From Nemertoderma westbladi (Eukaryota > Animalia > Xenacoelomorpha), in contig JAUCBJ010004174.1 of the NCBI GenBank assembly GCA_032718475.1, positions 25,664 to 89,663 of the forward strand: a DNA stretch of 64,000 nt. The letters are read 5' to 3'. Made by a program: the position numbers and the translations under genes. The notes below the pieces were generated by a model. That model searched no databases and had not been told where the DNA came from. It saw only the letters and a program-made list of their open reading frames with translations. Positions 23,301 to 53,300 of this stretch are shown one piece after another; the first letter of the stretch is position 1; the number at the start of each line of letters is the position of its first letter.

Positions 23301-26300
23301 TTGAAATGTAAAAATCAATGCTTAATATCTGTATCAGGTTACACACTGTGGCATTAAAAATGTTTTATAGGTGAATGGCTTTTAGCGGCTTCCCTTCAGA
23401 CCATAGACAAACATTGTTAAGGAAATTTACTTTAGTTTACTCTACTGTGCCATTCAGGTGAATGGATTTGAGTAATTGCCAAGTTACAGTGTGGAATCTC
23501 TCTCTCTGACCATAGGTAAATAACACTTTCCTTCAGACCATAGGCAAACATTGTTGATGGAATTTACATTTGATTGATGACTTCCGACTTCTTAACGGCG
23601 TCTTGACGCCGTCTCTAGTTAGGAACCGAGAGGTTCATTACTGTAAGAATTGCTCGAGACTGGCTGGCTGACTGACTGACTGACTAATCTACAGCCAAAA
23701 CTACTCTAACGATTTTGATGGAATTTTCACAGCGGCTAGATACCGCGATTCTAAGGTCCCTGGTATGTTCCACTATTTCGTCCATGAGCCGTGGGCTCGA
23801 AAAATAGACATAAACGAAAAAACGCCATAGGCGCAATGGTAAAATAACACCCATGACAGCTGGTGTCGTGATGAAAAATGGCTTATGTAATGCATTTCTA
23901 CAGAAGGCTTAGTAATAAATCGATGAGGTTGCCAAGATTATTATACTCAGTACACCCATACTGTTTGTATAGGCCACCACTCTCTGTCAAAGCAAACATT
24001 ATGAACTGGTTGGTTTAGTTTGAAATCTAATATCGCCTCAGCTGAATTACTCTTCCCAATGCAATCTATGGTAATATCTCACTCTGCTAATGTAAGCTGA
24101 ATGACTGTTACGTACACAGTGAGTTGGCTACATTAATGCCAACATTATTGCAAAATGTTTTATTGTTGGATTACTCTCTGTCAGTCACCCCTTCAGAACA
24201 TTGTATAGGGAATTTACTTTAGTTTACTCTACTGTGCCATTCAGCTGAATGGATTTGAGCGATTGCCAAGTTACAGAGTTGGATCATTCTCTGACCATGG
24301 GCAAAGACATCAAATCTTTTTAAAAATATACTTTTTCCATGTTTTTTTTCTGACCAAAAATTTCAAAAAAAAATTTTTCGTAGCCAGTACTGCCAATCGA
24401 TTCGCCATCAAAAATAACGCAAAAAATTTTTTTTGCAAAATTTTAAATTACTGTAAATTTTTGGCGACTGGGGGGGGTCAATTTTTTTCGATCCGCTATA
24501 ACTCCGGAACGCTTTGTCCAAATTCGATGGGGTTTTCATTTTTCAACTTAATTAGATGTCCTCTTTCAGCCTATCCATGTTTCCAAACCCCAAACAGCGC
24601 CGTTCAAAAAATAATTTTTTCCAGTTCTAGAATTTTACAAATTTCAAAAAAGTTTCAGTATTTTATTAACGCCTTTACGGAATTCGATAGCGTTTTCGAT
24701 TTTTATATTAAACGCAATATCCTGAATCTCACTAGCATAGTTTCGCGTCACCAACGCCAAGACTTCATACTTTTTGAGGAAAATTTTTCTAGAATAATTT
24801 TTATTAAATTACATTTATCGCGATTTCTTATTACTGGTTGCACATGAATTGATGGAGTTTTCAATTTATTAACTAAACACGATATCGCGCATCGCACCAG
24901 CGTGGTTTCGAAATTCCAAAACGAGGTCTTCACTAGTTTCAGGTCGATTTTGTTCTAGAATTGAGCAACTAATAATATATCGAATTTATTAATAATTATT
25001 GTATGAGATATGATTGTATTTTTACATAATTATTAGTTCTATACTAATTCTCGTTGTCTCTTTTATTTAAAATAAAAAGTCGGTTCCTTATCGGGCCGCT
25101 AGGCCCGTCACTAGTTAGGAACCGAGAGGTTCATTACTGTAAGAATTGTTTGCTGACTGACTGGCTGGCTGACTGACTGGCTGGCTGATCTACAGCCAAA
25201 ACTACTCTAACGATTTTGATGAAATTTTCACAGCGGCTAGATACCGCGATTCTAAGGTCCCTGGTATGTTCCGCTATTTCGTCCATGAGCCGTGGGCTCG
25301 AAAAATAGACATAAACGAAAAAACGCCATAGGCGCAATGGTAAAATAACACCAATGACAGCTGGTGTCCTGATGAAAAATGGCTTATGTAATGCATTTCT
25401 ACAGAAGGCTTAGTAATAAATCGATGAGGTTGCCAAGATTATTATACTCAGTACACCCATACTGTTTGTTTAGGCCCTGCACTCTCTGTCAAAGCAAATA
25501 TTAACTGGTTGATTTAGTTTGAAATCTAATATCGCCTCAGCTGAATTACTCTTCCCAATGCAATCTATGGGAATATCTCACTCTGCTAATGTAAGCTGAA
25601 TGACTGTTACGTACACAGTGAGTTGGCTACATTAATGCCAACATTATTGCAAAATGTTTTATTGTTGGATTACTCTCTGTCAGTCTCCCCTTCAGAACAT
25701 TGTATAGGGAATTTACTTTAGTTTACTCTACTGTGCCATTCAGCTGAATGGATTTGAGCGATTGCCAAGTTACAGAGTTGGATCATTCTCTGACCATAGG
25801 CAAAGACATCAAATCTTTTTAAAAATATACTTTTTCCATGTTTTTTTTTCTGACCAAAAATTTCAAAAAAAATTTTTTCGTAGCCAGTACTGCCAATCGA
25901 TTCGCCATCAAAAATAACGCAAAAAATTTTTTTTGCAAAATTTTAAATTACTGTAAATTTTTGGCGACTGGGGGGGGTCAATTTTTTTCGATCCGCTATA
26001 ACTCCGGAACGCTTTGTCCAAATTCGATGGGGTTTTCATTTTTCAACTTAATTCGATGTCCTCTTTCAGCCTATCCATGTTTCCAAACCCCAAACAGCGC
26101 CGTTCAAAAATTAATTTTTTCCAGTTCTAGAATTTTACAAATTTCAAAAAAGTTGCAGTATTTTATTAACGCCTTTACGGAATTCGATAGCGTTTTCGAT
26201 TTTTATATTAAACGCAATATCCTGAATCTCACTAGCCTAGTTTCGCGTCACCAATGCCAAGACTTCATACCTTTTGAGGAAAATTTTTCTAGAATAATTT

Positions 26301-29300
26301 TTATTTAATTACATTTATCGCGATTTCTTATTACTGGATGCACATGAATTGATGGAGTTATCAATTTATTAACTAAACACGATATCGCGCATCGCACCAG
26401 CGTGGTTTCGAAATTTCAAAACGAGGTCTTCACTAGTTGCAGGTCGATTTTGTTCTAGAATGGAGCAACTAATAATAGATCGAATTTATTAATAATTATT
26501 GTATGAAATATGATTGTATTTTTACATAATTATTAGTTCTATACTAATTCTCGTTGTCTCTTTTATTTAAAATAAAAAGTCGGTTCCTTATCGGGCCGCT
26601 AGGCCCGTCACTAGTTAGGAACCGAGAGGTTCATTACTGTAAGAATTGTTTGCTGATTGATTGACTGGCTGGCTGACTGACTGATCTACAGCCAAAACTA
26701 CTCTAACGATTTTGATGAAATTTTCACAGCGGCTAGATACCGCGATTCTAAGGTCCCTGGTATGTTCCGCTATTTCGTCCATGAGCTGTGGGCTCGAAAA
26801 ATAGACATAAACGAAAAAACGCCATAGGCGCAATGATAAAAACACCAGCTGGCACTCATGAAAAATGGATAGAGATGGCCTAGTAATGCTATTCTATAGG
26901 AATGGCCACCTAACAAGGAAATGCTTTCTGTGCCAAGTATTATCCTCACTCTACAACTCAGACAGTAAGCAAACAAAAGCCGTAGGATTCTAATGTATTA
27001 CATCATAAGCTGATTGCTCTCCCAATAGCCCTCACACACTCACTGAATCAAATGAAATCGTATATCTATTAGCTTAATGCGAATAGCTGGTAAGCTGAAT
27101 GCCATTTTAGTTATTGTGAACTGTTGACTGTAGAGTAGACTGCTATGTTGTATGTATTTAATTAAAATAATTTTCGTAGAGGGAAGTTAATTTGGGATTA
27201 CTTTCTATCAGATGTAATGTAAGCAAAGCTGTTCAATGGGGGTGGGTCATGGGACCCAAATATAGTACATTATGCATGGCAAACATTAATAAAATCATTC
27301 AGTCAACCTGGAGGGTATTTGCTTAGTTAACTCTACTGTGCGAAAAACGAATTTATAATGTTACCCATACTTCAGGTGAATGAATTTTTAGATATTTGTA
27401 CTGAAGGCAAGGATTTCTGATATAATTAAAATACAAGACAGGGGCTTGTTTCGATATATGTAGTTGCGCCCTTCTAGCAGCACGTGAGATAATCAAATAA
27501 TAGACACAATGTTTGACTTTGTCCCTTCGAGCAGCACGTGAGTTTTGCTTTGAGCCTTCGATATATGTATTTGCGCCCTTCGAGCAGCACGTGAATTACA
27601 TCAAATAATAGACACATTGTTTGACTTTGTCCCTTCGAGCAGCACGTGAGTTTTGCTTTGACCCTTCGATATATGTATTTGCGCCCTTCGAGCAGCACGG
27701 GGAGTCGACTCAGACCGAGCCGAGCTGAGCCGAGCCGAGCCGAGCCGAGCCGAGCCGAGCCGAACCAAGCCGAGCCGAGGCGAGCCGAGCCGAGCCGAAC
27801 CAAGCCGAGCCAAGCCGAGCCGAGCCGAGCCGAGCCGAGCCGAGCCGAGCCGAGCCGCGCCAAGCCGAGCCGAGCCGTGCCAAGCCGCGCCAAGCCGAGC
27901 CGAGCCGAGCCGAGCCGAGCCGAGCCGAGCCGAGCCGAGCCGAGCCGAGCCGAGCCGAGCCGAGCCGAGCCGAGCCGAGCCGAGCCGAGCCGAACCGAGC
28001 TGAACCGAGCCGAGCCGAGCCGAGCCGAGCCGAGCCGAGCCGAGCCGAGCAGAGCCGTGCCGAGTCGTGCCGTGCCGAACCGAGCCGAGCCGAGCCAAGC
28101 CGAGCCGAGCCGAGCCGAGCCGAGCCGAGCCGAGCCGAGCCGAGCCGAGCCGAGCCGAGCCGAGCCGAGCCGAGCCGAGCCGAGCCGAGCCGAGCCGAGC
28201 CGAGCCGAGCCGAGCCAAGCCGAGCCGAGCCCAGCCGAGCCGAGCCAAACCGAGCCGAGCCGAGCCGAGCCGAGCCGAGCCGAGCCGAGCCGATCAAGCC
28301 AAGACGAACTTAATCGTGCCCAATCGTGCAAGACCGAGCCGAGCTCGTTGTCTCTTATATATGAAATAAAAAGTCGGTTCCTTATCGGGCCGCTAGGCCC
28401 GTCACTAGTTAGGAACCGAGAGGTTCATTACTGTAAGAATTGTTTGCTGATTGATTGACTGGCTGGCTGACTGACTGATCTACAGCCAAAACTACTCTAA
28501 CGATTTTGATGAAATTTTCACAGCGGCTAGATACCGCGATTCTAAGGTCCCTGGTATGTTCCGCTATTTCGTCCATGAGCCGTGGGCTCGAAAAATAGAC
28601 ATAAACGAAAAAACGCCATAGGCGCAATGGTAAAATAACACCAATAACAGCTGGTGTCGTGATGAAAAATGGCTTATGTAATGGATTTCTACACAAGGCT
28701 TAGTATAAATCGATGAGGTTGCCAAGATTATTGTACTCAGTACACCCATACTGTTTGTTTAGGCCCTAGGACACTCTGTCAAAGCAAATATTAACTGGTT
28801 GCTTTAGTTTGAAATCTAATATCGCCTCAGCTGAATTACTCTTCCCAATGCATTGTATGGGAATATCTCACTCTGCTAATGTAAGCTGAATGACTGTTAC
28901 TTACACAGTGAGTTGGCTACATTAATGCCAACATTATTGCAAAATGTTTTATTGTTGGATTACTCTCTGTCAGTCACCCCTTCAGAACATTGTATAGGGA
29001 ACTTACTTTAGTTTACTCTACTGTGCCATTCAGCTGAATGGATTTGAGCGATTGCCAAGTTACAGAGTTGGATCATTCTCTGACCATAGGCAAAGACATC
29101 AAATGTTTTTAAAAATATACTTTTTCCATGTTTTTTTTTCTGACCAAAAATTTCAAAAAAAAATTTTTCGTAGCCAGTACTGCCAATCGATTCGCCATCA
29201 AAAATAACGCAAAAAATTTTTTTTGCAAAATTTTAAATTACTGTAAATTTTTGGCGACTGGGGGGGGGTCAATTTTTTTCGATCCGCTATAACTCCGGAA

Positions 29301-32300
29301 TGCTTTGTCCAAATTCGATGGGGTTTTCATTTTTCAACTTAATTTGATGTCCTCTTTCAGCCTATCCATGTTTCCAAACCCCAAACAGCGCCGTTCAAAA
29401 ATTAATTTTTTCCAGTTCTAGAATTTTACGAATTTCAAAAAAGTTGCAGTATTTTATTAACCCCTTTACGGAATTCGATAGCGTTTTCGATTTTTATATT
29501 AAACGCAATATCCTGAATCTCACTAGCCTAGTTTCGCGTCACCAACGCCAAGACTTCATACTTTTTGAGGAAAATTTTTCTAGAATAATTTTTATTTAAT
29601 TACATTTATCGCGATTTCTTATTACTGGTTGCACTTGAATTGATGGAGTTTTCAATTTATTAACTAAACACGATATCGCGCATCGCACCAGCGTGGTTTC
29701 GAAATTCCAAAACGAGGTCTTCACTAGTTGCAGGTCAATTTTGTTCTAGAATTGAGCAACTTATAATAGATTGAATTTATTAATAATTATTGTATGAAAT
29801 ATGATTGTATTTTTACATAATTATTAGTTCTATAATAATTCTCGTTGTCTCTTTTATTTGAAATAAAAAGTCGGTTCCTTATCGGGCCGCTAGGCCCGTC
29901 ACTAGTTAGGAACCGAGAGGTTCATTAGGAACCGAGAGGTTCATTACTGTAAGAATTGTTAGCTGACTGGCTGACTGACTGATCTACAGCCAAAACTACT
30001 CTAACGATTTTGATGAAATTTTCACAGCGGCTGGATACCGCGATTCTAAGGTCCCTGGTATGTTCCGCTATTTCGTCCATGAGCCGTGGGCTCGAAAAAT
30101 AGACATAAACGAAAAAACGCCATAGGCGCAATGGTAAAATAACACCAATAACAGCTGGTGTCGTGATGAAAAATGGCTTATGTAATGCATTTCTACAGAA
30201 GGCTTAGTAATAAATCGATGAGGTTGCCAAGATTATTATACTCAGTACACCCATACTGTTTGTATAGGCCACCACTCTCTGTCAAAGCAAACATTATTAA
30301 CTGGTTGGTTTAGTTTGAAATCTAATATCGCCTCAGCTGAATTACTCTTCCCAATGCATTCTATGCGAATATCTCACTCTGCTAATGTAAGCTGAATGAC
30401 TGTTACGTACACAGTGAGTTGGCTACATTAATGCCAACATTATTGCAAAATGTTTTATTGTTGGATTACTCTCTGTCAGTCACCCCTTCAGAACATTGTA
30501 TAGGGAATTTACTTTAGTTTACTCTACTGTGCCATTCAGCTGAATGGATTTGAGCGATTGCCAAGTTACAGAGTTGGATCATTCTTTGACCATAGGCAAA
30601 GACATCAAATCTTTTTAAAAATATACTTTTTCCATGTTTTTTTTTCTGACCAAAAATTTCAAAAAAAATTTTTCGTAGCCAGTACTGCCAATCGATTCGC
30701 CATAAAAAATAACGCAAAAAATTTTTTTTGCAAAATTTTAAATTACTGTAAATTTTTGGCGACTGGGGGGGGGTCAATTTTTTTCGATCCGCTATAACTC
30801 CGGAACACTTTGTCCAAATTCGATGGGGTTTTCATTTTTCAACTTAATTCGATGTCCTCTTTCAGCCTATCCATGTTTCCAAACCCCAAACAGCGCCGTT
30901 CAAAAATTAATTTTTTCCAGTTCTAGAATTTTACAAATTTCAAAAAAGTTTCAGTATTTTATTAACGCCTTTACGGAATTCGATAGCGTTTTCGATTTTT
31001 ATATTAAACGCAATATCCTGAATCTCACTAGCCTAGTTTCGCGTCACCAACGCCAAGACTTCATACTTTTTGAGGAAAATTTTTCTAGAATAATTTTTAT
31101 TTAATTACATTTATCGCGATTTCTTATTACTGGTTGCACATGAATTGATGGAGATTTCAATTTATTAACTAAACACGATATCGAGCATCGCACCAGCGTG
31201 GTTTCGAAATTCCAAAACGAGGTCTTCACTAGTTGCAGGGCGATTTTGTTCTAGAATTGAGTAACTAATAATAGATCGAATTTATTAATAATTATTGTAT
31301 GAAATATGATTGTATTTTTACATAATTATTAGTTCTATAATAATTCTCGTTGTCTCTTTTATTTGAAATAAAAAGTCGGTTCCTTATCGGGCCGCTAGGC
31401 CCGTCACTAGTTACTGTAAGAATTGCTCGAGACTGGCTGGCTGACTGACTGATCTACAGCCAAAACTACTCTAACGATTTTGATGAAATTTTCACAGCGG
31501 CTAGATACCGCGATTCTAAGGTCCCTGGTATGTTCCGCTATTTCGTCCATGAGCCGTGGGCTCGAAAAATAGACATAAACGAAAAAACGCCATAGGCGCA
31601 ATGGTAAAATAACACCAATAACAGCTGGTGTCCTGATGAAAAATGGCTTATGTAATGGATTTCTACACAAGGCTTAGTATAAATCGATGAGGTTGCCAAG
31701 ATTATTGTACTCAGTACACCCATACTGTTTGTTTAGGCCCTAGGACACTCTGTCAAAGCAAATATTAACTGGTTGGTTTAGTTTGAAATCTATTATTGCC
31801 TCAGCTGAATTACTCTTCCCAATGCAGTCTATGGAAATATCTCACTCTGTTAATGTAAGCTGAATGACTTACGTACACAGTGTGTTGGCTACATTAATGC
31901 CAACATTATTGCAAAATGTTTTATTGTTGGATTACTCTCTGTCAGTCTCCCCTTCAGAACATTGTATAGGGAATTTACTTTAGTTTACTCTACTGTGCCA
32001 TTCAGCTGAATGGATTTGAGCGATTGCCAAGTTACAGAAGAGTTGGATCATTCTCTGACCATAGGCAAAGACAAATCTTTTTAAAAATATACTTTTTCCA
32101 TGTTTTTTTTTCTGACCAAAAATTTCAAAAAAAACTTTTCGTAGCCAGTACTGCCAATCGATTCGCCATCAAAAATAACGTAAAAAATTTTTTTTGCAAA
32201 ATTTTAAATTACTGTAAATTTTTGGCGACTGGGGGGGTCAATTTTTTTCGATCCTCTATAACTCCGGAACGCTTTGTCCAAATTCGATGGGGTTTTTATT

Positions 32301-35300
32301 TTTCAACCTAATTCGATGTCCTCTTTCAGTCTATCCATGTTTCGAAACCCCAAACCGCGCCGTTCAAAAATTAATTTTTTCTAGTTCTAGAATTTTACAA
32401 ATTTCAAAAAAGTTGCAGTATTTTCATTAACGCCTTTATGGAATTCGATAGCGTTTTCGATTTTTATATTAAACGCAATATCCTGAATCTCACTAGCCTA
32501 GTTTCGCGTCACCAATGCCAAGACTTCATACTTTTTGAGGAAAATTTTTCTAGAATAATTTTTATTTAATTACATTTATCGCGATTTATTATTACTGGTT
32601 GCACATGAATTTATGGATTTTTCAATTTATTAACTAAACACAATATCGCGCATCGCACCAGCGTGGTTTCGAAATTCCAAAACGAGGTCTTCACTAGTTG
32701 CAGGTCGATTTTGTTCTATAATTGAGCAATTAATAATAGATCGAATTTATTAATAATTATTGTATGAAATATGATTCTATTTTTACATAATTATTAGTTC
32801 TATACTAATTCTCGTTGTCTCTTTAATTTAAAATAAAAAGTCGGTTCCTTATCGGGCCGCTAGGCCCGTCACTAGTTAGGAACCGAGAGGTTCATTACTG
32901 TAAGAATTGTTGGCTGATTGATTGACTGGCTGGCTGACTGACTGATCTACAGCCAAAACTTAGGAACCGAGAGGTTCATTACTGTAAGAATTGTTGGCTG
33001 ATTGATTGACTGGCTGGCTGACTGACTGATCTACAGCCAAAACTACTCTAACGATTTTGATGAAATTTTCACAGCGGCTAGATACCGCGATTCTAAGGTC
33101 CCTGGTATGTTCCGCTATTTCGTCCATGAGCTGTGGGCTCGAAAAATAGACATAAACGAAAAAACGCCATAGGCGCAATGGTAAAATAACACCAATAACA
33201 GCTGGTGTCGTGATGAAAAATGGCTTATGTAATGTAATGCATTTCTACAGAAGGCTTAGTAATAAATCGATGAGGTTGCCAAGATTATTATACTCAGTAC
33301 ACCCATACTGTTTGTATAGGCCACCACTCTCTGTCAAAGCAAACAATAACTGGTTGGTTTAGTTTGAAATCTAATATCGCCTCAGCTGAATTACTCTTCC
33401 CAATGCAATCTATGGGAATATCTCACTCTGCTAATGTAAGCTGAATGACTGTTAAGTACACAGTGAGATGGCTACATTAATGCCAACATTATTGCAACAT
33501 GTTTTATTGTTGGATTACTCTCTGTCAGTCTCCCCTTCAGAACATTGTATAGGGAATTTACTTTAGTTTACTCTACTGTGCCATTCAGCTGAATGGATTT
33601 GAGCGATTGCCAAGTTACAGAGTTGGATCATTCTCTGACCATAGGCAAAGACATCAAATCTTTTTAAAAATATACTTTTTCCATGTTTTTTTTTCTGACC
33701 AAAAATTTCAAAAAAAAATTTTTCGTAGCCAGTACTACCAATCGATTCGCCATCAAAAATAACGCAAAAAATTTTTTTTGCAAAATTTTAAATTACTGTA
33801 AATTTTTGGCGACTGGGGGGGGGGTCAATTTTTTTCGATCAGCTATAACTCCGGAACGCTTTGTCCAAATTCGATGGGGTTTTCATTTTTCAACTTAATT
33901 CGATGTCCTCTTTCAGCCTATCCATGTTTCGAAACCCCAAACAGCGCCGTTCAAAAATTAATTTTTTCTAGTTCTAGAATTTTACAAATTTCAAAAAAGT
34001 TGCAGTATTTTATTAACGCCTTTACGGAATTCGATAGCGTTTTCGATTTTTATATTAAACGCAATATCCTGAATCTCACTAGCCTAGTTTCGCGTCACCA
34101 ATGCCAAGACTTCATACTTTTTGAGGAAAAATTTTCTAGAATAATTTTTATTTAATTACATTTATCGCGATTTCTTATTACTTGTTGCACATGAACTGAT
34201 GGAGTTTTCAATTTATTAACTAAACACGATATCGCGCATCGCACCAGCGTGGTTTCGAAATTCCAAAACGAGGTCTTCACTAGTTGCAGGTCGATTTTGT
34301 TCTAGAATTGAGCAACTAATAATAGATCAAATTTATTAATAATTATTGTATGAAATATGATTGTATTTTTACATAATTATTAGTTCTATACTAACTCTCG
34401 TTGTCTCTTTTATTTAAAATAAAAAGTCGGTTCCTTATCGGGCCGCTAGGCCCGTCACTAGTTAGGAACCGAGAGGTTCATTACTGTAAGAATTGTTAGC
34501 TGACTGGCTGACTGACTGGCTGGCTGACTGATCTACAGCCAAAACTACTCTAACGATTTTGATGAAATTTTCACAGCGGCTAGATACCGCGATTCTAAGG
34601 TCCCTGGTATGTTCCGCTATTTCGTCCATGAGCCGTGGGCTCGAAAAATGGACATAAACGAAAAAACGCCATAGGCGCAATGGTAAAATAACACCAATGA
34701 CAGCTGGTGTCCTGATGAAAAATGGCTTATGTAATGCATTTCTACAGAAGGCTTAGTAATAAATCGATGAGGTTGCCAAGATTATTATACTCAGTACACC
34801 CATACTGTTTGTATAGGCCACCACTCTCTGTCAAAGCAAACATTAACGGGTTGGTTTAGTTTGAAATCTAATATCGCCTCAGCTGAATTACTCTTCCCAA
34901 TGCAACCTATGGGAATATCTCACTCTGCTAATGTAAGCTGAATGACTGTTACGTACACAGTGAGTTGGCTACATTAATGCCAACATTATTGCAAAATGTT
35001 TTATTGTTGGATTACTCTCTGTCAGTCTCCCCTTCAGAACATTGTATAGGGAATTTACTTTAGTTTACTCTACTGTGCCATTCAGCTGAATGGATTTGAG
35101 CGATTGCCAAGTTACAGAGTTGGATCATTCTCTGACCATAGGCAAAGACATCAAATCTTTTTAAAAATATACTTTTTCCATGTTTTTTTTTCTGACCAAA
35201 AATTTCAAAAAAAAATTTTTCGTAGCCAGTACTGCCAATCGATTCGCCATCAAAAATAACGCAAAAAATTTTTTTTCCAAAATTTTAAATTACTGTAAAT

Positions 35301-38300
35301 TTTTGGCGACTGGGGGGGGGGGGTCAATTTTTTTCGATCCGCTATAACTCCGGAACGCTTTGTCCAAATTCGATGGGGTTTTCCTTTTTCAACTTAATTC
35401 GATGTCCTCTTTCAGCCTATCCATGTTTCCAAACCCCAAACAGCGCCGTTCAAAAATTAATTTTTTCCAGTTCTAGAATTTTACAAATTTCAAAAAAGTT
35501 GCAGTATTTTATTAACGCCTTTACGGAATTCGATAGCGTTTTCGATTTTTATATTAAAGGCAATATCCTGAATCTCACTAGCCTAGTTTCGTGTCACCGA
35601 TGCCAAGACTTCATACTTTTGAGGAAAATTTTTCTAGAATAATTTTTATTTAATTACATTTATCGCGATTTCTTATTAATGGTTGCACATGAATTGATGG
35701 AGTTTTCAATTTATTAACTAAACACGATATCGCGCATCGCACCAGCGTGGTTTCGAAATTCCAAAACGAGGTCTTCACTAGTTGCATGTCGATTTTGTTC
35801 AAAAATTGAGCAACTAATAATAGATCGAATTTATTATCAATTATTGTATGAAATATGATTGTATTTTTACATAATTATTAGTTCTATACTAATTCTCGTT
35901 GTCTCTTTTATTTAAAATAAAAAGTCGGTTCCTTATCGGGCCGCTAGGCCCGTCACTAGTTAGCAAGTCGTTAGACTTGATTACTGTAAGAAAAAAAAGC
36001 TACTGGCTACTGGCTACTGGCTACTGACCTAGAGCAAAAACGGCTCTAACGATTTTGATGAAATTTTGCATGGACCATGAAAATGGATTTCTAAGGGTAC
36101 TTGTGAAATCGCGGTTTAAATTGAAACATCTCAACTTGTTTTATTTCGAAAAATAGCCACAAAACACGAAATTTGCCATAGGCGAGGCGCAATGATAAAA
36201 CACCAGCTGGCACTCATGAAAAATGTATAGAGATGGCCTGGTAATGCATTCAATAGGAAGGGCAACTAACAAAGAAGTATTGTCTGTGCCAAGTTTTATT
36301 ATCACTCTACTCTACAACCCAGACAGTAATCAAACAAAACATTAACTGGTTTAGCTGGGTATTACAGTCTCAGCTGAATAACTCTTCCCAATGCATCCTT
36401 GCTATGTTAATTAATTGGCGTGCAAGCTAAATGACTGTTAGTTAAACAGTGTGTTGGCTACACAGTGTATTGTACTATGCTCTCATTGCATTATTGTTTT
36501 ATTTTGAAATCTTTGCGCCAACATTAATACTGTGGAGGCTGTATGTTGATAAGGCTGCATGTTTACTCAGCTTCATAATGATTCTCCATAAGGCTAACAT
36601 TATAGTTTGAAATATAAAAATCTGTTATTATAATTGTTGTATTTAATTAATATCGTGGTTTACATTGAACAGTGTAAATTGTTTATCGCGGTTTACATTG
36701 AAACATCTCAACTTGTTTATTTATTACTAAAATAAGAACGAATTTGTCTTATCACTTCTTGTGCGCGATTGTATTGAATTCATGACAACTGCTATTATTA
36801 TTATTAATCAATTGACACCTCGACTCCTCTCTGAGACTCCGACTACTCTATCCGATAGAATAAAATAGTCATTTCGCTAACTGCTCTCTATCTTACGGTG
36901 GCTGAAAGCGGCCAAAATAATTCACTACTTTTTTAATTTTTAATTTGATCAACATTTTTTTCTTGAATTTCAACCCGGGTTGAAATTAATATCAACCCGG
37001 GTTGAAATTAATATCAACCCGGGTTGAAATTAATATCAACCCGGGTTGAAATTAATATCAACCCGGGTTGAAATTAATATCAACCCGGGTTGAAATTAAT
37101 ATCAACCCGGGTTGAAATTAATATCAACCCGGGTTGAAATTAATATCAACCCGGGTTGAAATTAATATCAACCCGGGTTGAAATTAATATCAACCCGGGT
37201 TGAAATTAATATCAACCCGGGTTGAAATTAATATCAACCCGGGTTGAAATTAATATCAACCCGGGTTGAAATTAATATCAACCCAGGTTGAAATTGAATT
37301 ATTCGTACCGGTACTGTAGAATGTAATATGAGGTAATGTCATGTTGTAGGAGTAGGAGTAGAGCTGTAGTCTGCAGTCTGTAGAGGCAGAGACTGAGAGA
37401 GGCTGAGAGGTTGGCTTATCACAGTATCAGTGCAGTACTGCAGTACCAGTGACGGTGCTACGGTGCTTGGTCAGTTCCAGTTGGTAACCTAATTCTGTAA
37501 TTCACGATCTAAAAATGAGTAGGCCCAGTCCTAATAGTAGGCCTAGTGTTACTGGTGAATTAGGACTACCGGCACCATTGCCTATTACTCACGAACGACG
37601 ACGGTTATTATCGGAGTTAAGAAGTTACATAAACCTTGGTGTTGAAGACATTAATCGTGTCACTGGTCGGAGCGACGGCGTTACCTGTAGGCTTACTAGC
37701 GGCACATCTAGAATGGTTACCGGTACCGGTACTGAAAGTGAAACGGCTTCTGATTCCGGCGATTCATCGGATAATGATTTTCGAGATGAGACAACGCGTT
37801 TGCGTCGGATACCTTCGACTACCGATACTGATAGGCTTCACCTTCCCTCACGCTCGTCCTCAAGTCATTTGCGCAACTCTCGTAGATTTTCGCGCGCGAA
37901 GAATAGGCCTCTGATAGGGAGCCTAGGTAAAGTTGGTCGGCCTTCTCAATCGACTAAAGTTGTTATCGTTAAACTTAAAGTTCGTTACATTAATTCCACG
38001 AATGCAGATAGCATCACCATTAGAAAGCCCTTGGGTGAGAGTAATTCTTTGAAGATGAGTCTACCAATGGATGCGAACTTATCGGTCGTTAAAAAGTTGA
38101 TTCTCAATAAAATATTTATTGAAGAGCATAACCGTTGTTTGAGGGAGCAAGGATTTCCCTCAAACCGTAATTCTTATTCGTTTCAATTAACTAACTTACA
38201 AGGCGAGAAACTTAAGCCAAAGTTTTGTTCCCTTCGACAGTATACATTGGAGCGGTGTGTTTTAGGATCCTTAAAAATCGCTGTTGTTGGAGAATTGCCC

Positions 38301-41300
38301 GAAGAGGATACCGGTAATGAGTTGGAGAACGATTCAACACTACCAGCCATTGCCGAATGTGACACGGTTCCACCCTCGCCAGGCGATGAAGGTGCCAGTA
38401 CCAATGACGTGGTTCTACCTCCGACACCTGTTGGTATACTCAGTGTCGGTAATGGCGTGGCTGCACTTCCGCCAGCCCCAGCCCTTGATGGTACTGACGC
38501 GGTTCTACTTCCGCCAAACGTCGGTGAACTCGGTTCCTTCTGTGACATGGAACCGCTTCCACCAGCCTCCTCCGGTAATGATGTAGTTCCTGTTCTGCCT
38601 CCTCCTTTAATCGATGACCAAGTATATCAAGACACCAGTACCGATATACGTCAGGAATCCGTGTATGAAGTTCTGTCCCGTTTGGAGTGCAAAGTGGGTC
38701 TTTGCAACAAGGTAAACATCGTTAATGTTGACGACCGAGACAATGTACTTGATTGTGGATACCGGGCTTTTTCAAGAAAGGGATTCAACATATGGGAACC
38801 TTTATCTGTTAAATTCATTGGGGAGCGAGGCATAGATGCTGGAGGACCTTCGCGCGAATTCATGCGGTTAACATTACAAGCGATCAGGGATTCTGCGTTA
38901 TTCAGCGGCGAGGAAAATTCCAAGAACATCGAACTGGATTACAACAGTAAGTTGCATCAAATAATCTTATGCTGTTTAAATAAATTTAATTAAACTTCTT
39001 AATTTAACTGAACCAAATATAATTACATTTTTATAATATTTAATTATTATATTTTATTTTTCAGGTCTAAACTTAAACAGGTATTACCTGGCGGGAAAGA
39101 TGATAGGTTACTTCATCATACACCGAGGTTCGACTCCTAGTTTCCTATCCCCATTGTTGTATAACATAATTAGTATAACCGATGGATTTATTTCCGCCAC
39201 CCCGGCAGTGACTGATATAGCTGATTATGAACTACGGGACAAAGTTAATAAAGTGAGATATAGATAATTATTTATTTAATAATATAACATAAATATTAAA
39301 TAAACTAATTAAATAACTATTATATTTCGGTTAGGCCTATACAAAATATTGTTAACCATAACTTTACTTTAGATAAGTTCTGCAGAAACATCCGGAGAAT
39401 TCAACACTGCAATAGACGAGGCTACTGATCTGATATCTATGAGTGGTTGTTTCAATATAACTATCCATGGCTTCAGCGACCAAACGAAAATAGATCTTGT
39501 TGGAGCTTTGGCTAAATTCATTGTGATGGATAGAAATCGTCGTGCCATTGAACAGTAAGTTAATCATTAGTATAGTTAATTATCATAATCGCTCAATTAG
39601 TCAATATTAATTTCAGGAACTTTTTACAATTAATTTTAAACTAAACAGTCAAGTGCACTTTAGATTCCAGGATGGTCTAAAAGAAGTTGGATTAATTAAC
39701 GAAATTCTAAGAAATCCCGATGGTTGGCGGGAATTCTTTGTGCATAACGAATGTGTACTTACCTCCGAAGCTGTACAAGATTTGTTTATAATACAATGGT
39801 CAGAGAACAACAATAGTATTCGGAAGAGAAAGGAGAAACGTGTTGCAGCATATTGGCTGGATCTGTTGCAGGATTTGGGAGGTATTTTAAATTTTTTATT
39901 CAAAATTGAATAAAAAATGAAAATCACCACCAATCAAATAATTGATAAACTGTTAATTAATTTATAAATCGATTACTTGCTTAATAATTAATATGTTTCT
40001 TTCTCCTTAATTCATATATTTCTTGATTATTAATGAATGTATTGATTATTGATTAATCTGTTTATTTTTCTTTGAAATTTGTTTAACTGTTGTTTAATAA
40101 TTATGTGTTGCATTATTGTCCCAATAAGCCTAGGTCGCCTCGTATTTGTTTTGGTGTAAAGGTAAACTATACGCCGACAGCCTACAGCGGCCAACTAACA
40201 GCCGACAACAGTTATAAATGTTGCTGGGTGTTAGTTGCCGGCAATCGGCGTAGCGTTTACACCCTCCCGTATCCGTTTAATCGTCCTGCAGTTTAAATTG
40301 ATTTAATTAAATTTTTATATATTTTTAATTTTTAAATTATTGCATTTTTATTACAGACGGGGTTACAGGATATGCATCCGGGCGAGTAGTCGGGCTGAAA
40401 GACCTTCTTATATTTGTGACTGGTATCGATGCTGTTCCCGCACTTGGATTTAACCGGGATCCTTCAGTTGTATTCCTCCACCCCGAGGACGATAACCAAT
40501 ATTACATTGGTCTACCAAGATCAAACACTTGTGGTCTCATTTTAAGTCTACCGATTGTTGGGTCCTACGACGAGTTTAAACGCAATATGATTAGCGCATT
40601 GGAGATAGCGACTACATTCACCGATGATTGAATGAAACTATAAACATTTTAGTAATTGTTTATTATATACTAGAAGTAAAATAGAAAAATTAAGAACTAA
40701 ATTAGAACTATAGTCGTTTTATAGTAATAAAGAACTGTTATTCTTATAATAAAGTAAGAATTAGAAATTATATGTAAGTATGAATCATAAATAGTGCATT
40801 ATATTAGATATTAGAAATAGTAATGTTTGTTTACATTCCCCTAATGATTGGCAACATCGAGGTGTCACCAGCGCAGTATCTTCAAGGAAACTGTCACATA
40901 AGTTAGCGATCTCAGGGATACAGTGTGGCAGTTTGGTAGCGAATATTCTCATAGAGGCTAGAGATTCTATCTCCACGTGGTGGATGTAGTTAGGTGACTG
41001 TAAATAAAGTAGATTTGGCTTTCCTCCCGGGGATAATAGACCGCTACGGCGAATCCGGTGGCTATTGTGATAGACCATTATTAAATCGAGAGTATACTGG
41101 AGAAACGGCAAGTAAACATATCTAACAATTTCTATATGTATAAAGTTTGAAGTATCCAAAAAGGCAAGTTCTAATTCTGCGAAATGATCTAACCAATGCG
41201 ATAATCCAAGTATTGGAATCTTGGACCAAAAAGACTCAATCCTTTGGTTCCTTGTACTTTTACCGTAGATAAACGTTGTACCGTTCAGGGCAGCATCATC

Positions 41301-44300
41301 ATTATGATAGAGTCGAAGAAAGCGCTGGATAATTTCAATGTTGACGTTTTCTGTTCCGCGATCCGAACGTATAATATGCGGAATGCCTCGCAATAAATCG
41401 ATTATTTCTAAAAAATAGGCTGCCACTACGAAAGGATCGTTATTGCTCTGACCGCATTTTAACCACATAATCTTTCTGCTAAAACCGTCCATTCCACCAT
41501 GAATAGCTAAACCGAACGGTTTAAGCTTATCCCATCCGTCAATGTGGAGTAGAAAGTTTGGTCCCTTCGAAAAGTAAGTGCGACGTGTAAGTTTGTGCTT
41601 GATACGGCACAACCGCCCATCCGGATCTAGAATACGCAGCAGTTCGGCAGTTAATTTACGCGGTACATAAATGTTATGTTGGTACATTAAAACATGTTGC
41701 ATCTGCCGGTATCCAGCTGTACTTGGAGAACGATTATCACTAGAGTTTTTATGAAGTTCATTCTGTATGGTATCGACTATCACACCAAAATCAGCCGGAT
41801 TAAACCGTCGATGCAACTTAATTGATGATAAATAACGACGAACGGTTCTACAGGAAATGTACAAACCACAGGATTGCTGCAGTATCTGCGCTATTTCTGC
41901 ATGCGTATATCCCAACCAAAAATTATCAGAAATTTCCTTCCTCCAAGGTTGCGCCGAGACTAATATTGGCAACAATATAATAATCAAAACCAGTGCAGCT
42001 ACCGGTACTGATAGCGTTACAGTAGTAACATATTTCGTCATAATGATTTAAGCTTAAGTTTATAGCTTGTAAGTTTTGTGAAGACAGAAAGTTCCGGTCT
42101 GGTATGCAGTAGGTAAGGTACAGACAGTACCGGTCGCGGTCTGCGTCTGGTATGCAGGTTCCGATTTACACGCCGCCTTTCAGCTCTAGGTACAGTACCG
42201 GTTCGGCATGCAGGTTCCGTTTTTGATTTACACGCCGCCTTTAAGTCAGTTAGTTACATTTTAAATTTCCCTCTTCCTCATCAACATGAGTCAAATCCTC
42301 TAAAAGTCAGCTGATTGATATTAATTTCAACCCGGGTTGATATTAATTTCAACCCGGGTTGATATTAATTTCAACCCGGGTTGATATTAATTTCAACCCG
42401 GGTTGATATTAATTTCAACCCGGGTTGATATTAATTTCAACCCGGGTTGATATTAATTTCAACCCGGGTTGATATTATTTTCAACCCGGGTTGATATTAA
42501 TTTCAACCCGGGTTGATATTAATTTCAACCCGGGTTGAAATTCAAGAAAAAAATGTTGATCAAATTAAAAATTAAAAAAGTAGTGAATTATTTTGGCCGC
42601 TTTCAGCCACCGTACTATCTTCTATAATAACAACAGCTTTTATAATTCATTGGATGATTACAACATAATAATTATAGTTTGAAGTTGTCTAGAAAATTTT
42701 TCGTACACCACCAGGACTACCCTCACACTAATTGATTATCAGACAGAACAAAAAGCTTTTACTTGACTCGTATTGTCTCCTACGACTTGCTTCACGGGCC
42801 GCTAGGCCCGTCTCTAGTATTTTACCCGGTAATAATAATTCTAATTTAAATGTGCAAAATAATCCAAATAATAATTCTAATTTAAATGTGCAAAATAATC
42901 CAAATAATAATTCTAATTTAAATGTGCAAAATAATCCAAATAATGATTCTAATTTAAATGTGCAAAATAATCCAAATAGTAACCCTAATTCTGAACAAAA
43001 TAATTTAAATAATTTAGGTAACAATATTACGTTAAATAATAACCCCGAGGAAATTAAAAATATTATTAATTACGATGCAATTAATACCAACGTAGGGGAG
43101 GCAGGTGGTCCGGCCAACGAGAGCCTGCAAGGCCACGTAGTTGCACAAGGAGTAGCGGGGGTGAGTCAACCCAACGAGAGCCTGCAAGGCCACGTAGTCA
43201 CGCAGGGAGTAGAGGGGGTGAGTCAACCCACCGGGAGCCTGCAAGGCCACGCAGTCGCACAGGGAGAGGCGGGGGTGAGTAGACCCAGCCAGGGTAGAGA
43301 TAGTGCATCGACTAGAGAGGGGTGTGGAAGCGAAGTAGGAGGTAGCGAAGTAAGAGGTGGCGAAAGGGGGGGGGGGGGGGGGGGGGGGGGCTACGGGCAC
43401 CCCACCACAAGAGATTAGTGGCAAGAGGGGGGGGGGGGGGCAGAAATTGTGCCACAAGTGTCGGCGGAGAATGCGCGTGGCGAGTTAGGTGAACCGCGGC
43501 ACCCGATGACAGAGAATAGTAGGGGGATTGCGAGTATCCCCAGGAGTGTCCAGCAAAGCAGAGAGAGAGACATTGGCGCCGTGGGCAGGCGGGCGAGAGG
43601 ACGTCGGGCCCAGTCGGAGGGCGGGGGAAGAACAGTGGAGTTTATCCGGGAGGTCGAAGAGAGATCTTACGAGGCGGATCACTATACTGAAGAGAGAAGA
43701 AGTGAAGAGAATAGAAGAAGCGTTGCTACGAGCAACCGGAGAGGAAGGATGGACAGTGAACCGTCGGTAGAAGAGATGGAGTTAGAGAGTCGGTGGGGTC
43801 GAACTCCGGGAGATTGCCATCGCCCCGGAGAGACGCAGCCTGGTGAGATATACCACACACCGGGAGAAGGGTACAGCATGTACCGGTGTGAGGACGTGAA
43901 CAGGAGAGGGGATCGAAGAGAAACTTCCCGACGGGACATAGCTGCCGATCGAGAGTACGGTAGTCGCAGGGAGGACTTCTTGGAATATTCGAGAAGATTA
44001 AACTTCGGTCCGGAAGGACCCAGGCAGACTGCAGGGCATACTGTAGGCCTTACTGCACATACTATAGGCCATGCTGGAAGATATAGTGTAGGCGATAGGG
44101 TAGCGCGGACAACAGGATTAGATCCGGAAGTCGCGGTATACATACCGGTAGGAAGGCAAGAAGTGGATAGGCCTATACCGGTACCTGCACACCAGTATGA
44201 CTATGATATGCTAGGATATAATATATACCCAGGGGAGGGGGGAGCTATTGCCGATAGATATGGGCCCTAACATGGTAACATCAACCCCAGTACCAAATAT

Positions 44301-47300
44301 AACACCGGTGGGGGGGGGGGGGGGGGGGGGGGGCAGGGTGAAAATTCCCCCATTACAATATCAGCAATATACTCAACCAAGAACAAAAACCCCAAACACC
44401 TCGGACCAAAATAAGTCGTGTGATACAGAGATATGGAGGGGACCGTTACCCCCAATGATATATCCAACGCAGAAAAGGTCGACAGGCCCGACGGGCGAAC
44501 CGCACCAAGCGGCGGGGGAGTCTGCACAGCATCCATCGAGCGTGCTAGAAGTACAAGCGATGGGAATGGCAACACTCATTGACGAACTTGAGACCAGGAT
44601 CGAGCTGCCACCAATGGAGCCGTTCAAATTGGATGGTAGTAGGCCGGAGGAATACCTGCAATTCCAGCGTATGTATAGTAACGAAATATTAACGAAGAAC
44701 CTGACGCAGGCGGAGTGCCTAAAATACTTACAAGTTTACACAGGGGGGCCAGCATACGACATCGTAAGGCAGTACCAAGGTATCGAAGGTGGATTCACGA
44801 CTGCATGGCGGGCCCTAGACAGGGAATTCGGACATCCTGCTAAGATCATCCGACAAACCTTAAGGGGAATAACATCAGGTGGACTACAGGATAACCCTGT
44901 CAGCATCAAGACTTTCGCGAACAGAGTCGAAAATGTGCTAATTGTGCTAAAGACCTTAGATGCGCCTTACGAACTCAACGCATCGAATAACATCACCACA
45001 ATAGCGCAGGCACTACCCATCTGGCTAAGGAACAAATGGCGAAAGATCGCCTTCTCCACCCGCGAGAAGAAAGGTGTGGAACCAGGCGGAGTTGATTACA
45101 GACCCAGTCTACAGTGAGGATAGTTTGGGGAGGGCACTGAAAGCTGAATACATCAGGCCTAAACCCGAACATAGTCCGGCGGATGCATTCCCGAGGGTGA
45201 GACAGTTGCTACCACATGCGGCCACGCAGGGGTCTTGTAGTCCACAGGCAACTGGAAGTAGGGCCACACCGTGGCAGGGACAAAAACAAAACAACAACAC
45301 GAACAAATATAATCCCAACACCCCCAGTAGGCCGAGTCCAAATAACCAAAACACTAAACCGGTAGATATGAACCTACGCGCGATACATGAAGGGCTATAC
45401 AAGGAACGCTACAATCCAGGATACAAATGTCAATTGCATAGAGATGGAACCCACAACACCATGAATTGTAAGCATTGGCAAGCGTTGCCTAAACAAGATC
45501 GGGTAGCCTACGCGGATATAAATGGACTATGTCATCGATGCGTGGTAGAAGGACACAGATTCGGAAAGTGTAGAGAAACATCGATAGAATACGACGAGAC
45601 TGATGAGAGTGGAGGCCAAACTATGGCTACGAGCAAGACGGGAGCAAGGAGAAAGAGAACGGTACTACTCGAAACAGTACCAGTGAGAATAACAGGAGAG
45701 GATGGGCTATCGGTCACAACATTAATGTTGATCGATAGTGGAGCAGCATTCACGCTAACGGAGGGTTGGGTGGCCGAAAAGATAGGGTTACGAACGAGGC
45801 CAAGCAAGATGGCGGTAACAACTATCTCGAGTAAAGACGAGGTCTTGAAGATGAGAACGGGGCGTTGTAAAATATCAGCGATAACGCCAGGGTGCAATTA
45901 TGGGGCGACCATCGATCCCATTCAAATAATAGAATCGATTAATATTAATGCCAGGCGACCCACAAAGATCGAGGTCGAACAATACCAGTACCTGGACAAC
46001 ATCGATTTCTCCGTGCCCGAACTGGACGTCCCGAAAGTATCTCTCATAGTCGGAATGGACTGCCCGACGGCCCACGGGAGAACGGCCATGCTCGGAGATG
46101 ATGGGGGGAGAGGCCCGATGGCGATTTGCACGCCATTCGGATGGACACTCAGCGGCCCAATCAAGTCTAGAATTCCGTTCAGCGTGTCGGAATCCTCAGG
46201 GTGCATGTTTGCTATGAGAGAAATAGAGGACGGAGGAACAGAGGAGAAACTAGAGACGGGCGATGGGGAGGACCCATACGAGAAGCAGGCCAAGGAAGAA
46301 AACCAGGAGTCGGGGATGGGTATGGATCTGGAACCACGCATGGTGGAGCATGGTGAAAGGGTGGAGGACAGAGAACTACCGCCGACTGATGAGTCAGGAA
46401 GAGAAACAACAACAAGAGAGTGGGCGGACGAGAATGGGGAGTATCGGCATGGGGATAGAGAAGTGTGGACAGCGAGATGCCGAGATGTCCGGAGAGGTGT
46501 CCGGATCAGACGCCGGTCCAGTTGAGAGGCATACCGTGGGGAGGAGGCCGAGTAAGAAGACAAGGTGGAAAGGGAGAGGATGTGGGAAGATTAGACCAGG
46601 GGCAGAGAAGCCCATGATGAAACGTGACAAAGGAGGCAGGAAAGTGGGAGAGGGCGTGTTGTACACGCATAAGGGGGTGGCAGAGTGCGAAGGGGCATTA
46701 AATGGTAAGCCATTACGTGTACCGAAGGATGACCGGGGGTCATCGGGGGCTAGGTAATAAGAAAATAATATCACCTATAATGTTTCTTCAGTTTAAATAT
46801 GGTTACTATCATTTTAAAAAGAAACCAATTCAGGATCAAGTACCTCACATGTTGCTATGTTCAGACCATAATTTGCCAGCCAATCATGTCATTTCTTGTT
46901 GCCAAGGCAACCAAAAATATTATTTAATATGTGAAAATTCCATCAGAATCATTTTATATGTTCTTCAGATGCATATCAATATGTTACATAGTCAACATTC
47001 ATGATCACAAGCGAAGTCATTATTCTGTTGTTTCCATAGCCACGGGCATATTTTAGTATTATGTAGTTATAGTAACGTATTTGGCATTTTATTGACATTG
47101 TAAGTTAATCATATTAAAGATTATTGAAAAAAATTGTGTGGAGTCTGCTACAGTTATTTTATTTAACAAAGTCTTGAATTTTAACCATAGCAACGGGAGT
47201 TTTGATCCTAATTCGGGAGTGACTTGTTAAAAATACTCAAAATTCGGTTTAATGTACATTTCAGTATTTTGTAGCATGAGATGCTGTAGAAATTACAAAA

Positions 47301-50300: not shown

Positions 50301-53300
50301 ATACCTCCACCACAGATACTCATGTTGCCACGATCTCCATAGCAATGTGTGCGAGTGTAAGCGTCGTTCCTTAGTAACGGGAGGCTCCGTGTTCGTAAGA
50401 CCCGCTCACAGTGTTCACCGTTGCGGTGCGTTTGGTGCGACGCGGAGTTGCTTCGGATTGGACAAACATTACCCGCCGGAGTGGCTGAGCTCCGGGAGGG
50501 ACAAACCGACATCGCATATCGGCGGTCGGACCAGCGCCGAAACCTGGTCCAACCTCGCCCGCAGCTGGAGTAAGCGCTCCGTCGGTGGGTTAGACCACAA
50601 GGGGGGCGCTTATACCTGGTCTAAGGGAGTCCTCGTGTTCGGTCTGGTTGTGGGGGGCGTTGCTATGGCACTGCGCACCGCTCAAGGACAACTACTGCTG
50701 GCGTTTATCGCTGGTGTCGATATTATCAAGGAGTTACAACAGTAAATATTACGGAATAGAATATAGTCAACCTAACGAATATTTACAAATTTTAGCGCAA
50801 TATAATAATGTTGGTTTTGTTTCAATCGTTGAATCTTAAAACAATTGGTTGAAATTCGGTTTCAATACAATAATGAAACACTATAGAATTCAATAAATAA
50901 ATTCGAGGTTTTCAATATTTCTACTTCTAGAAACTGCAAACCATTAAGGGGGGGGGGGGGGGGGGGGGTTGTTGGAATAAATAATTATACACTCACTTGT
51001 AACAGGGTTGACCCCCAACGACCTCGGTGAAACTAAACCTTCCCTCCTTTCCGCCAATAGGAACGCCGGTTTTGTGTTTGTATTCGCAGCACGAACTCAG
51101 TCTGGTATCCATGACGCCGTTGATGTAGCAGGCTACACTAAACGGGTAACCGAAATGTCGCATCGACGTAAAAGTAAATTCATCTGTAATTGTTAAAAAA
51201 ATTACAATTTAAATATTATGTTTATATACGTACAAACCTTTTCTACTTCAATGCTGTTTCAACACTCATGTAATAACATTTTAGAAATTCCTCCAAAAAT
51301 ATTTTAATTTCTTATTTTTGCTTTTTTAGCCGCAAAAAATTAAACTCAAGGCAATCCTAAAGGTTACTTTTTCCTTAGGGAAAAAAGTACAACTTCCTTT
51401 TCTCCCAATTTTGGGAAATATTCAGGCGAAAATGTAACAATTTATGAATAAAATCCATATTTTATGTTTAACAAATCAAATAAATAATCATTCAATAGAA
51501 ACAAAACTGAAACTATTAAAAATTTTCTGCCGCAGCAATAATTCCCTACCGTTATGTATTAAATAACTCATGAGAGTTAAGTGCAAGGCCATTGATTGAA
51601 ACCAGACACCCCAGGTCATTCAGCCCTTTAATATCTCTCCGATAGAATGTTGACAGAGAGCCCGGGGTATTACATTGTGTTACGCAGTTTAACTACCGCC
51701 ACCATTACCTATAATACATGGCGTCCATTGATTATCGAAAATGCATATAAATCTCAACACAAGCCAAGGACGAATTCGATAAATCTTACCTCCGGGGAGC
51801 AAATACTGACGGAACACGACGATGGTGTTTCCTCCGCAGTGCTGCTGCAACAAGGCCACCTCAGAGGCGTCGTCTTTGTTGAGTCCTCTGAGACCGTGGA
51901 AACGCATGGAACACTCAATGAGTGGGCCTCCAACCCGGTGCGACTTGGGCGGTTCTTGGGGGTGTAAATAGTTGGTACCCTGGGGAGTAACGGGGGGAGT
52001 TATCAGTAGTTTAACGTAGACGATGTGCCTTATCTAACAGGAGGGTTTCTTCAGAAAAATACTACAAAAAAGCGCCAAGTAAAACGTAATCACTACAACG
52101 CCAAGTAAAACGTAATCACTACAACGCCAAGTAAAACGTAATCACTACAACGCATATTTAAAAACCAAATTTAAAACTAAAACGCAATTAAAATTATTAT
52201 TTGAAGGGAATGAAATATAAATAATTTTGGTCAACCAATTTTCGAAACTTCTTATAAGAGTAGACGAGATTATAAAACAGAAATAATGATTGTAAAATGG
52301 AATACCAGATTAAAACGGAACCACATTCTTATAGTAACCCCAGAGACCACCATAATTTTTATTTATAATCAAAAAATGGTAAGTAGGATTAAAAACAAAA
52401 TCAAAAGGTCATAAATAACTTTTTATTTCCACAAAGTTTGAGTTTATTTTTTAGCGAGAAAAAGTAAAGGGAAAGATATTTTGAACTTTACTTTAATCAA
52501 TAATTTTGTTGACCAAAATAAAATTAGTGGTTAATTTCAATGCGGTAATTCCATTGATACCTCTTTTGAATTAGATCAAACGATAAACATTAACAGAACT
52601 TTTAAATTATTGTATTAAGTCATCTAAAATTATGTTTATGAAAATCTTCGCGCAGTTAATCTACTTAATTTCAACAATATTTTGCCTTAGGCAGATGCGC
52701 AGATTGCGCCCCATTTGAACTTATAACGCCACGATATGTGTTGCATGTAAAGAGTTACAATTAGTGTTTAAATGAAAGCTATAATTTATCCGTTACCATG
52801 GAAACGCGCACAATAAACCGGGTAATATATTTGAAAAATCATTGACTATAATGTAACAAAAATATGTTGGGGGTCTCAAGGGTTATTACGATATTGTATT
52901 TCCGTGTTAATAAAGTCTGCCATGTGTGCACAGTGCAAGTGTATATTATTATGGATTAATGGTATTGGGACATAAATTGAATAGGGACATAAATGCAAAT
53001 GGTATTGGGACATAAATGGAATAGGGACATAAATTGAATAGGGACATAAATGGTATTGGGACATAAATGGAATTGGGACATAAATGGTATTGGGACATAA
53101 ATGGTATTGAGACATAAATGGAACAGGGACATAAATGGAACAGGGACATAAATGGAACAGGGACATAAATGGTATTGGGACATAAATGGTATTGGGACAT
53201 AAATGGTATTGGGACATAAATGGAATTGGGACATAAATGGAATTGGGACATAAATGGAATTGGGACATAAATGGAATTGGGACATAAATGGAATAGGGAC

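Follow-up and report, generated by a model that had tools for sequence, protein, structure and literature searches.

A 5721-bp element at positions 36894-42614 of a 64,000-nucleotide stretch of the Nemertoderma westbladi genome (contig JAUCBJ010004174.1; the whole stretch is hereafter called the window, and positions are counted from its first letter) is almost certainly a structurally complete DNA transposon of the IS3EU/GingerRoot type, in which a DDE transposase gene faces a spliced gene for a predicted HECT E3 ubiquitin ligase. Given the repeated linkage of such genes in other assemblies, the retention of the catalytic cysteine and the concentration of differences in introns, it is very probable that the ligase is a maintained partner of the transposon lineage and not decayed cargo, as a first-pass annotation made from the letters alone had proposed.

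Structure of the element

The element starts with TACGG and ends with CCGTA, and the hexamer CTATCT abuts both ends as an exact 6-bp target site duplication (TSD), a match with a chance probability of about 2e-4 given the local composition. The arms of its terminal inverted repeats (TIRs; 36894-37193 and 42315-42614) are identical at 299 of 300 bases, with a single mismatch. Both the matching TIRs and the TSD had been reported by the first-pass annotation; what it had not mentioned is that only the outer 72 bp of each arm are unique sequence, while further in a near-palindromic unit of 22 bp is repeated as an array (15.0 copies on the left, 10.4 on the right), two units of which fold with a z-score of -9.7. 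These subterminal arrays are likely transposase-binding sites. The TIR identity and the exact TSD support a recent insertion, as had been suggested. Neither a further TIR copy nor a second copy of the flanking sequence spanning the insertion site was found within the window. The two genes converge, their facing stops lying 153 bp apart, and the features of the element are as follows.

36888-36893: left TSD, CTATCT
36894-36965 (+): left TIR, unique outer part, starting with TACGG
36966-37295: left subterminal array, 15 copies of the near-palindromic 22-bp unit
37515-38946 (+): HECT exon 1, with a low-complexity N-terminus, a predicted beta-grasp domain (residues 142-264), a Pro/acidic linker and the start of the HECT N-lobe
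39065-39252 (+): HECT exon 2 (N-lobe)
39373-39554 (+): HECT exon 3
39664-39881 (+): HECT exon 4
40357-40631 (+): HECT exon 5, with the C-lobe, Cys732 (LPRSNTC), Phe761 and the stop (PF00632, E 1.3e-8)
40632-40784: inter-stop gap of 153 bp, with AATAAA at 40726 and 40748 (+) and at 40659 (-)
40785-42041 (-): IS3EU-type DDE transposase of 418 residues with a helix-turn-helix-like N-terminal part (PF24764)
42315-42542: right subterminal array, 10.4 copies of the 22-bp unit
42543-42614 (-): right TIR, unique outer part, ending with CCGTA
42615-42620: right TSD, CTATCT

The transposase and the assignment to IS3EU

The minus-strand frame at 42041-40785, described in the first pass as an uninterrupted DDE frame of 418 residues, is indeed open throughout and matches Pfam PF24764 (E 2.4e-29). 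A search returned 434 relatives, the best 120 of which, as listed, are 33-49% identical to it; those that carry a name are from animals. Residues D168, D227 and E269 are invariant in an alignment of 37 sequences and would constitute the catalytic triad. The protein departs from its relatives at 2 of 57 conserved columns, and 41% of the 120 relatives have as many departures. Position 325 holds His where 99% of these relatives have Trp (W325H), and the conserved columns show a short gap near position 346. With an open frame and an intact triad, but with the W325H substitution, autonomy of the element is plausible.

In the available parts of the sources, IS3EU elements are defined by TA..TA ends and usually a 6-bp TSD (PMC10045372), their termini are given as TAYGG..CCRTA (PMC12730594), and those described encode two proteins (PMC8232023, citing Kojima 2019). 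The window element has TACGG..CCGTA termini, the 6-bp TSD CTATCT, TIRs above 30 bp (72 unique bp plus the arrays), an integrase-like DDE transposase with its first Asp, D168, between 100 and 300 residues from the start, and two encoded proteins. In all these traits it resembles the IS3EU/GingerRoot elements of Repbase, PMC10045372 and PMC6839031, as far as these were accessible, and a by-eye comparison with Repbase IS3EU-1_CGi_2p, in the accessible supplement of PMC10045372, finds the transposase motifs in agreement. Ends, TSD, transposase motifs and two-gene layout hence concur in the IS3EU membership first put forward. The difference from described IS3EU/GingerRoot elements lies in the second protein, which here is a spliced HECT E3 ligase with a predicted ubiquitin-like (UBL) domain. 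A prokaryotic insertion sequence was also considered, and is ruled out by the spliceosomal introns and the animal relatives.

The HECT gene and its product

The second gene comprises five plus-strand exons joined by GT..AG introns into a product of 764 residues, the convergent gene that the first pass had outlined. Eight combinations of donors and acceptors keep the frame open (753-764 residues); the 764-residue version aligns to its relatives without a gap at any of the four junctions, which supports this splice model. Introns have a GC content of 15-28% and exons of 39-46%, and the joined exons 2-5 were open in none of 200,000 base shuffles; an artefact or a chance frame was rejected. Exon 5 alone matches the Pfam HECT domain (PF00632), and exons 1-4 taken singly give no Pfam match. 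The spliced protein is 38% identical over 382 residues (E 1e-79) to a relative (P0121), with the alignment running through the four junctions to the C-terminus. Its residues 386-764 align end to end with this relative, whose HECT domain spans Pfam positions 35-304 of 306, and this alignment, together with PDB matches for both ends, indicates complete N- and C-lobes.

HECT ligases transfer ubiquitin through a Cys of the C-lobe. The catalytic Cys and the Phe four from the C-terminus pointed out in the first pass are present as Cys732, in LPRSNTC, and Phe761; Cys732 is common to 17 of 17 full-length relatives. The protein departs from these at 3 of 53 conserved columns, the relatives themselves at 0-8. 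As judged from its sequence, the product is predicted to be a catalytically complete E3 ligase. Several single-exon relatives end near the place of intron 1, which also fits the splice model.

The search with exon 1 found 313 relatives, of which the best 150 were listed. Those named come from molluscs, fish, an annelid, a nemertean, an urchin and a beetle, and seven representatives among 20 looked up are called 'G2/M phase-specific E3 ubiquitin-protein ligase(-like)'. The suspicion that such copies are annotated as G2E3-like genes is thus borne out for the nearest database relatives, RefSeq 'G2/M phase-specific E3 ligase-like' proteins, which bear this name. In a limpet, one relative recurs with identical protein sequence on three contigs, for which RefSeq has three accessions; this fits the expectation for a mobile gene.

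Residues 141-270, approximately, are ordered in an alignment-guided structural model, with a predicted local distance difference test score (pLDDT) of about 60-90. The region resembles the beta-grasp folds of UBL, UBX and SUMO (best Foldseek E 1e-4), and structure comparison (VIA) gives Z up to 8.7 with a root-mean-square deviation of 2.4 over 80 residues; single-sequence folding of the domain yields a pLDDT of 34. The sequence match is weak (BLASTP E 4e-5 to relative P0157 in a set of 150 sequences; leave-out hidden Markov model E 0.076), so the ubiquitin-like (beta-grasp) fold of residues 142-264 is put forward as a prediction of the model. N-terminal domains vary among HECT relatives and include SAM, UBX, CARD-caspase and zinc finger domains. 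In six of them (P0228, P0200, P0236, P0246, P0131 and P0204) CARD plus caspase (in a grouper), a TNP-like RNase H piece, and UBX or SAM were observed.

The highly divergent HECT domain resembles those of the class IV families G2E3, GL-Metazoa and GL-Bikonta, which the available text of PMC3673628 treats as host genes (the string 'transpos' occurs 0 times in it). According to the same portion of that source, the HECT domain of mammalian G2E3 is non-functional and is accompanied by three PHD/RING fingers. The window protein differs in its predicted UBL domain and in keeping the Cys. Its exon 1 has no Pfam match and, as ordered domains in the model, only the beta-grasp and the HECT start; with the three N-terminal PHD/RING-like zinc fingers of G2E3 absent, a true G2E3 orthologue was rejected. 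In an unrooted tree without a bona fide G2E3, the window HECT groups with seven relatives (ultrafast bootstrap, UFBoot, 91) and a HECT linked to a transposase in another assembly (G001) forms a pair with a clam protein that RefSeq names as G2E3-like (UFBoot 100).

Linkage of HECT and transposase genes in other assemblies

A transposase profile search of GTDB assemblies gave 18 loci. Since spliced genes and microsatellites are present, these loci are taken to be contigs of animal hosts binned with symbionts. Several bacterial and archaeal metagenome-assembled genomes of GTDB (L002-L019; G001-G010) hold such eukaryote-type contigs, of up to 0.4-1.1 Mb, with spliced genes and IS3EU elements; these contigs could mislead any claim that transposons have moved between domains of life.

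Ten genomes searched for HECT and PF24764 yielded 23 HECT loci, 12 of which share a contig with a transposase match above the cut-off; the remaining 11 (4 canonical-looking, 7 in fragmented assemblies) were omitted from the linkage test, as was one contig that was too short (G001:C1180), leaving 11 loci on five long contigs. Eight of these 11 have a PF24764 match no more than 10 kb away (null mean 1.7) and all 11 have one within 32 kb (null 4.4), values reached in 0 of 200,000 simulations in either case, with thresholds set after the data had been seen and in genomes reached via their transposases. The pair on the short contig, 6.3 kb apart, is a ninth close pair; seven of the nine converge, and searching with a profile built from the window's own family adds two further convergent pairs. 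The HECT gene is hence not confined to this copy. At G002:C10:26844-34150 an independent complete element (TATGG..CCATA, TSD GTGTAG, TIR of about 400 bp) encloses both genes; its transposase is of a different subtype from the window's, and its HECT gene seemingly has an internal duplication. The pairing covers two transposase subtypes, with DKLKP and HKLIR motifs. Linked HECTs are 21-33% identical to that of the window, and the Cys is present in 11 of the 12 that have a transposase on their contig; two of these 11 contain internal stops. G003:C4 has two copies, each about 13.7 kb long and 98% identical to one another (approximately 133500-147200 and 918000-932200), with a transposase and a HECT gene.

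For the three HECTs of one genome (G005) that score strongly with Pfam, no transposase match on the same contig exceeds the cut-off, and the window-family profile gives a weak match or none. L009, L012, L015, L017, G002:C10 and G004:C6 also contain many shorter inverted pairs of the form TAYGG..CCRTA that lack a corresponding TSD; they are probably inner repeats or non-autonomous relatives. Four species have relatives of both the HECT and the transposase, and none of their accessions are neighbours, an uninformative result, the relatives being from different families. Word-index searches with pieces of the HECT gene and a viral scan gave no match, and a metagenome scan gave one 1.6-kb contig.

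Variation within the species

Read cover and variants were scored over 37300-40300. Three sequencing runs, which come from two studies and contain 82-92% of the words, show several overlapping variants over this interval, as would be seen in a multi-copy family some of whose members are dead, provided that each run represents one individual. No RNA run was among those listed, which says nothing either way about expression. The run with the highest share of words may be the source of the window; a further run under the same species label (X5) gave no exon cover, which is no proof of absence. Two long contigs, chosen after viewing, differ from the window mainly in introns, with at least 10 of 11 differences there in the first (P 1.5e-4) and at least 9 of 12 in the second (P 0.004), which carries a broken acceptor; this bias suggests exon constraint between subfamilies, with the proviso that AT-rich introns may mutate faster. 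In intron 4, read depth is high and ends are loose at about 40176-40264 in each of the four runs, so that this short stretch is probably a small repeat with many copies in other parts of the genome.

Several of these data weigh against a maintained, functional gene pair. Besides W325H in the transposase and the choice of thresholds and genomes in the linkage test, sister variants in the runs have indels that shift the frame, a deletion of 704 bp that recurs in all three runs, and in one case a broken acceptor. Among 40 listed differences (of 112), 18 are exonic, and their split into 5 synonymous and 13 non-synonymous changes shows no constraint, as neutral decay would give. The linked loci are partly related, G003 and G004 having stretches 82-92% identical; of the 11 regions searched, just 1 has TIRs and a TSD around both genes; in three cases the HECT is 19-31 kb away from the transposase; both G003:C4 copies lack the catalytic Cys (Tyr in one, Phe in the other); and no HECT neighbour of the transposase was found in L003, L009, L012 and L015, which span 12-21 kb each.

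Role of the ligase

DDE enzymes act by cut-and-paste with staggered insertion. The transposase would accordingly bind the ends of the element, cut, and insert it with a 6-bp stagger, and the ligase, likely encoded by an accessory gene of long standing in this transposon lineage, would borrow E1 and E2 enzymes from the host. The N-terminal domain might pick the substrate or recruit degradation machinery, and the ligase would then ubiquitinate a host protein that restricts the element. The chances that the ligase has such a host-directed role, with a silencing or restriction factor as substrate, appear to us evenly poised. This role is indirectly favoured by the variation of the N-terminal domains and by analogy with rust-fungus IS3EU families, which in the available parts of PMC12730594 carry an alpha-kinase opposite the transposase and a TET/JBP dioxygenase, the latter linked by its authors to escape from silencing. 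The fungal elements share with the window's the TAYGG..CCRTA ends, the 6-bp TSD and the position of an enzyme gene opposite the transposase, as far as that source describes them, but they are fungal and bear a kinase and a dioxygenase, in contrast to an E3 ligase and animal relatives here. The VANC anti-silencing proteins of VANDAL elements, in what was available on them, are likewise encoded by a non-transposase gene in a DNA transposon and have been proposed or shown to counter the host. The same applies to the Ulp1 and OTU proteases of Zisupton, Ginger and Mutator transposons. VANC and these proteases bind DNA or remove ubiquitin-like marks, whereas the HECT protein would add ubiquitin.

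It is possible, if rather doubtful, that the ligase targets its own transposase instead, either limiting its activity or stripping the post-insertion complex for gap repair, in which case the UBL domain would bring in p97 or the proteasome. Once strand transfer is complete, retroviral integrase and MuA have to be removed by the host, and the one-to-one convergent pairing across both transposase subtypes, the UBL/UBX-like N-terminal fold and the UBX domain of some relatives would all suit such a task. The N-terminal domains are, however, far more varied than the transposases, and the sources, as far as available, describe IS3EU families with no HECT (the alpha-kinase/TET families and GingerRoot), so that a HECT protein is not required for transposition throughout the superfamily.

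Less probable still is a selfish toxin/antidote system or germline-manipulating effector that favours carriers and acts neither on silencing nor on the transposase. Variable N-terminal domains, CARD-caspase among them, would accommodate it, and virus-like transposons have been linked to genetic incompatibilities (10.1101/2022.07.12.499685, available in part); the element, however, has only two genes and no candidate antidote.

Finally, a passenger captured from a host G2E3-like gene, of no benefit and intact because young, is a very improbable and largely refuted reading. In its favour, capture of host gene fragments is known from GingerRoot elements, databases annotate the nearest relatives as host genes, and exonic changes within the species look neutral with many sister variants broken. 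Against it, what GingerRoot elements capture consists of fragments with 79-98% identity to the source gene (PMC6839031, available part), whereas the paired HECTs are so divergent and yet nearly always keep the Cys and mostly converge with their transposase, the protein is without G2E3's fingers, and the limpet protein occurs as expected of a mobile gene.

Surroundings of the element

On the plus strand at 42732-46525, from 118 bp to the right of the element, an Asn-rich frame is followed by a DUF1759 gag (E 5.7e-10) and, in a different frame, by an aspartyl protease. This is likely a broken BEL/Pao retrotransposon, in the 5' part of which the IS3EU copy may sit. To the left, an array of units of about 1.5 kb, 91-96% identical, extends over approximately 21900-36340, broken at 27715-28293 by 116 copies of CCGAG. 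Satellites occupy 1785-8259 (53 bp), 52997-55668 (34 bp) and 59663-60363 (19 bp). Other frames comprise a reverse transcriptase fragment of the long interspersed nuclear element (LINE) type at 60519-61469 (+; RVT_1, E 2e-28), one that by eye resembles a LINE endonuclease at 15034-15501 (-), and a charged frame of 456 residues with 30-bp repeats and no Pfam match at 18000-19370 (-).

Implications

No paper was found that names the second protein of IS3EU as a HECT ligase, nor any publication on the pairing, in a search outside which most subscription papers fall and with the possibility that Repbase already records the domain. By term count, 'HECT' is absent from the available parts of PMC6839031, the supplement of PMC12730594 and bioRxiv 2021.09.26.461848, and 'ubiquitin' and 'ligase' from the main texts of PMC10045372 and PMC12730594; PMC10853768 and PMC13343696, in the portions available, hold nothing on an IS3EU-HECT pairing. 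An E3 ligase inside a eukaryotic DNA transposon would, if true, represent a direct route to destroy host proteins, and a compact copy of 5.7 kb with both frames open makes the ligase idea testable.

More generally, it may tentatively be suggested that a large share of animal 'G2/M phase-specific E3 ligase-like' genes and of the fast-evolving class IV HECTs are second genes of IS3EU elements, that they would form a widespread ubiquitin-ligase arm of transposons against host silencing with swappable substrate domains, and that host G2E3 may itself have acquired its HECT domain when this transposon gene was domesticated. Many animal G2E3-like gene models and HECT expansions may hence be transposon genes, which would affect both genome annotation and the evolutionary counts of E3 ligases.

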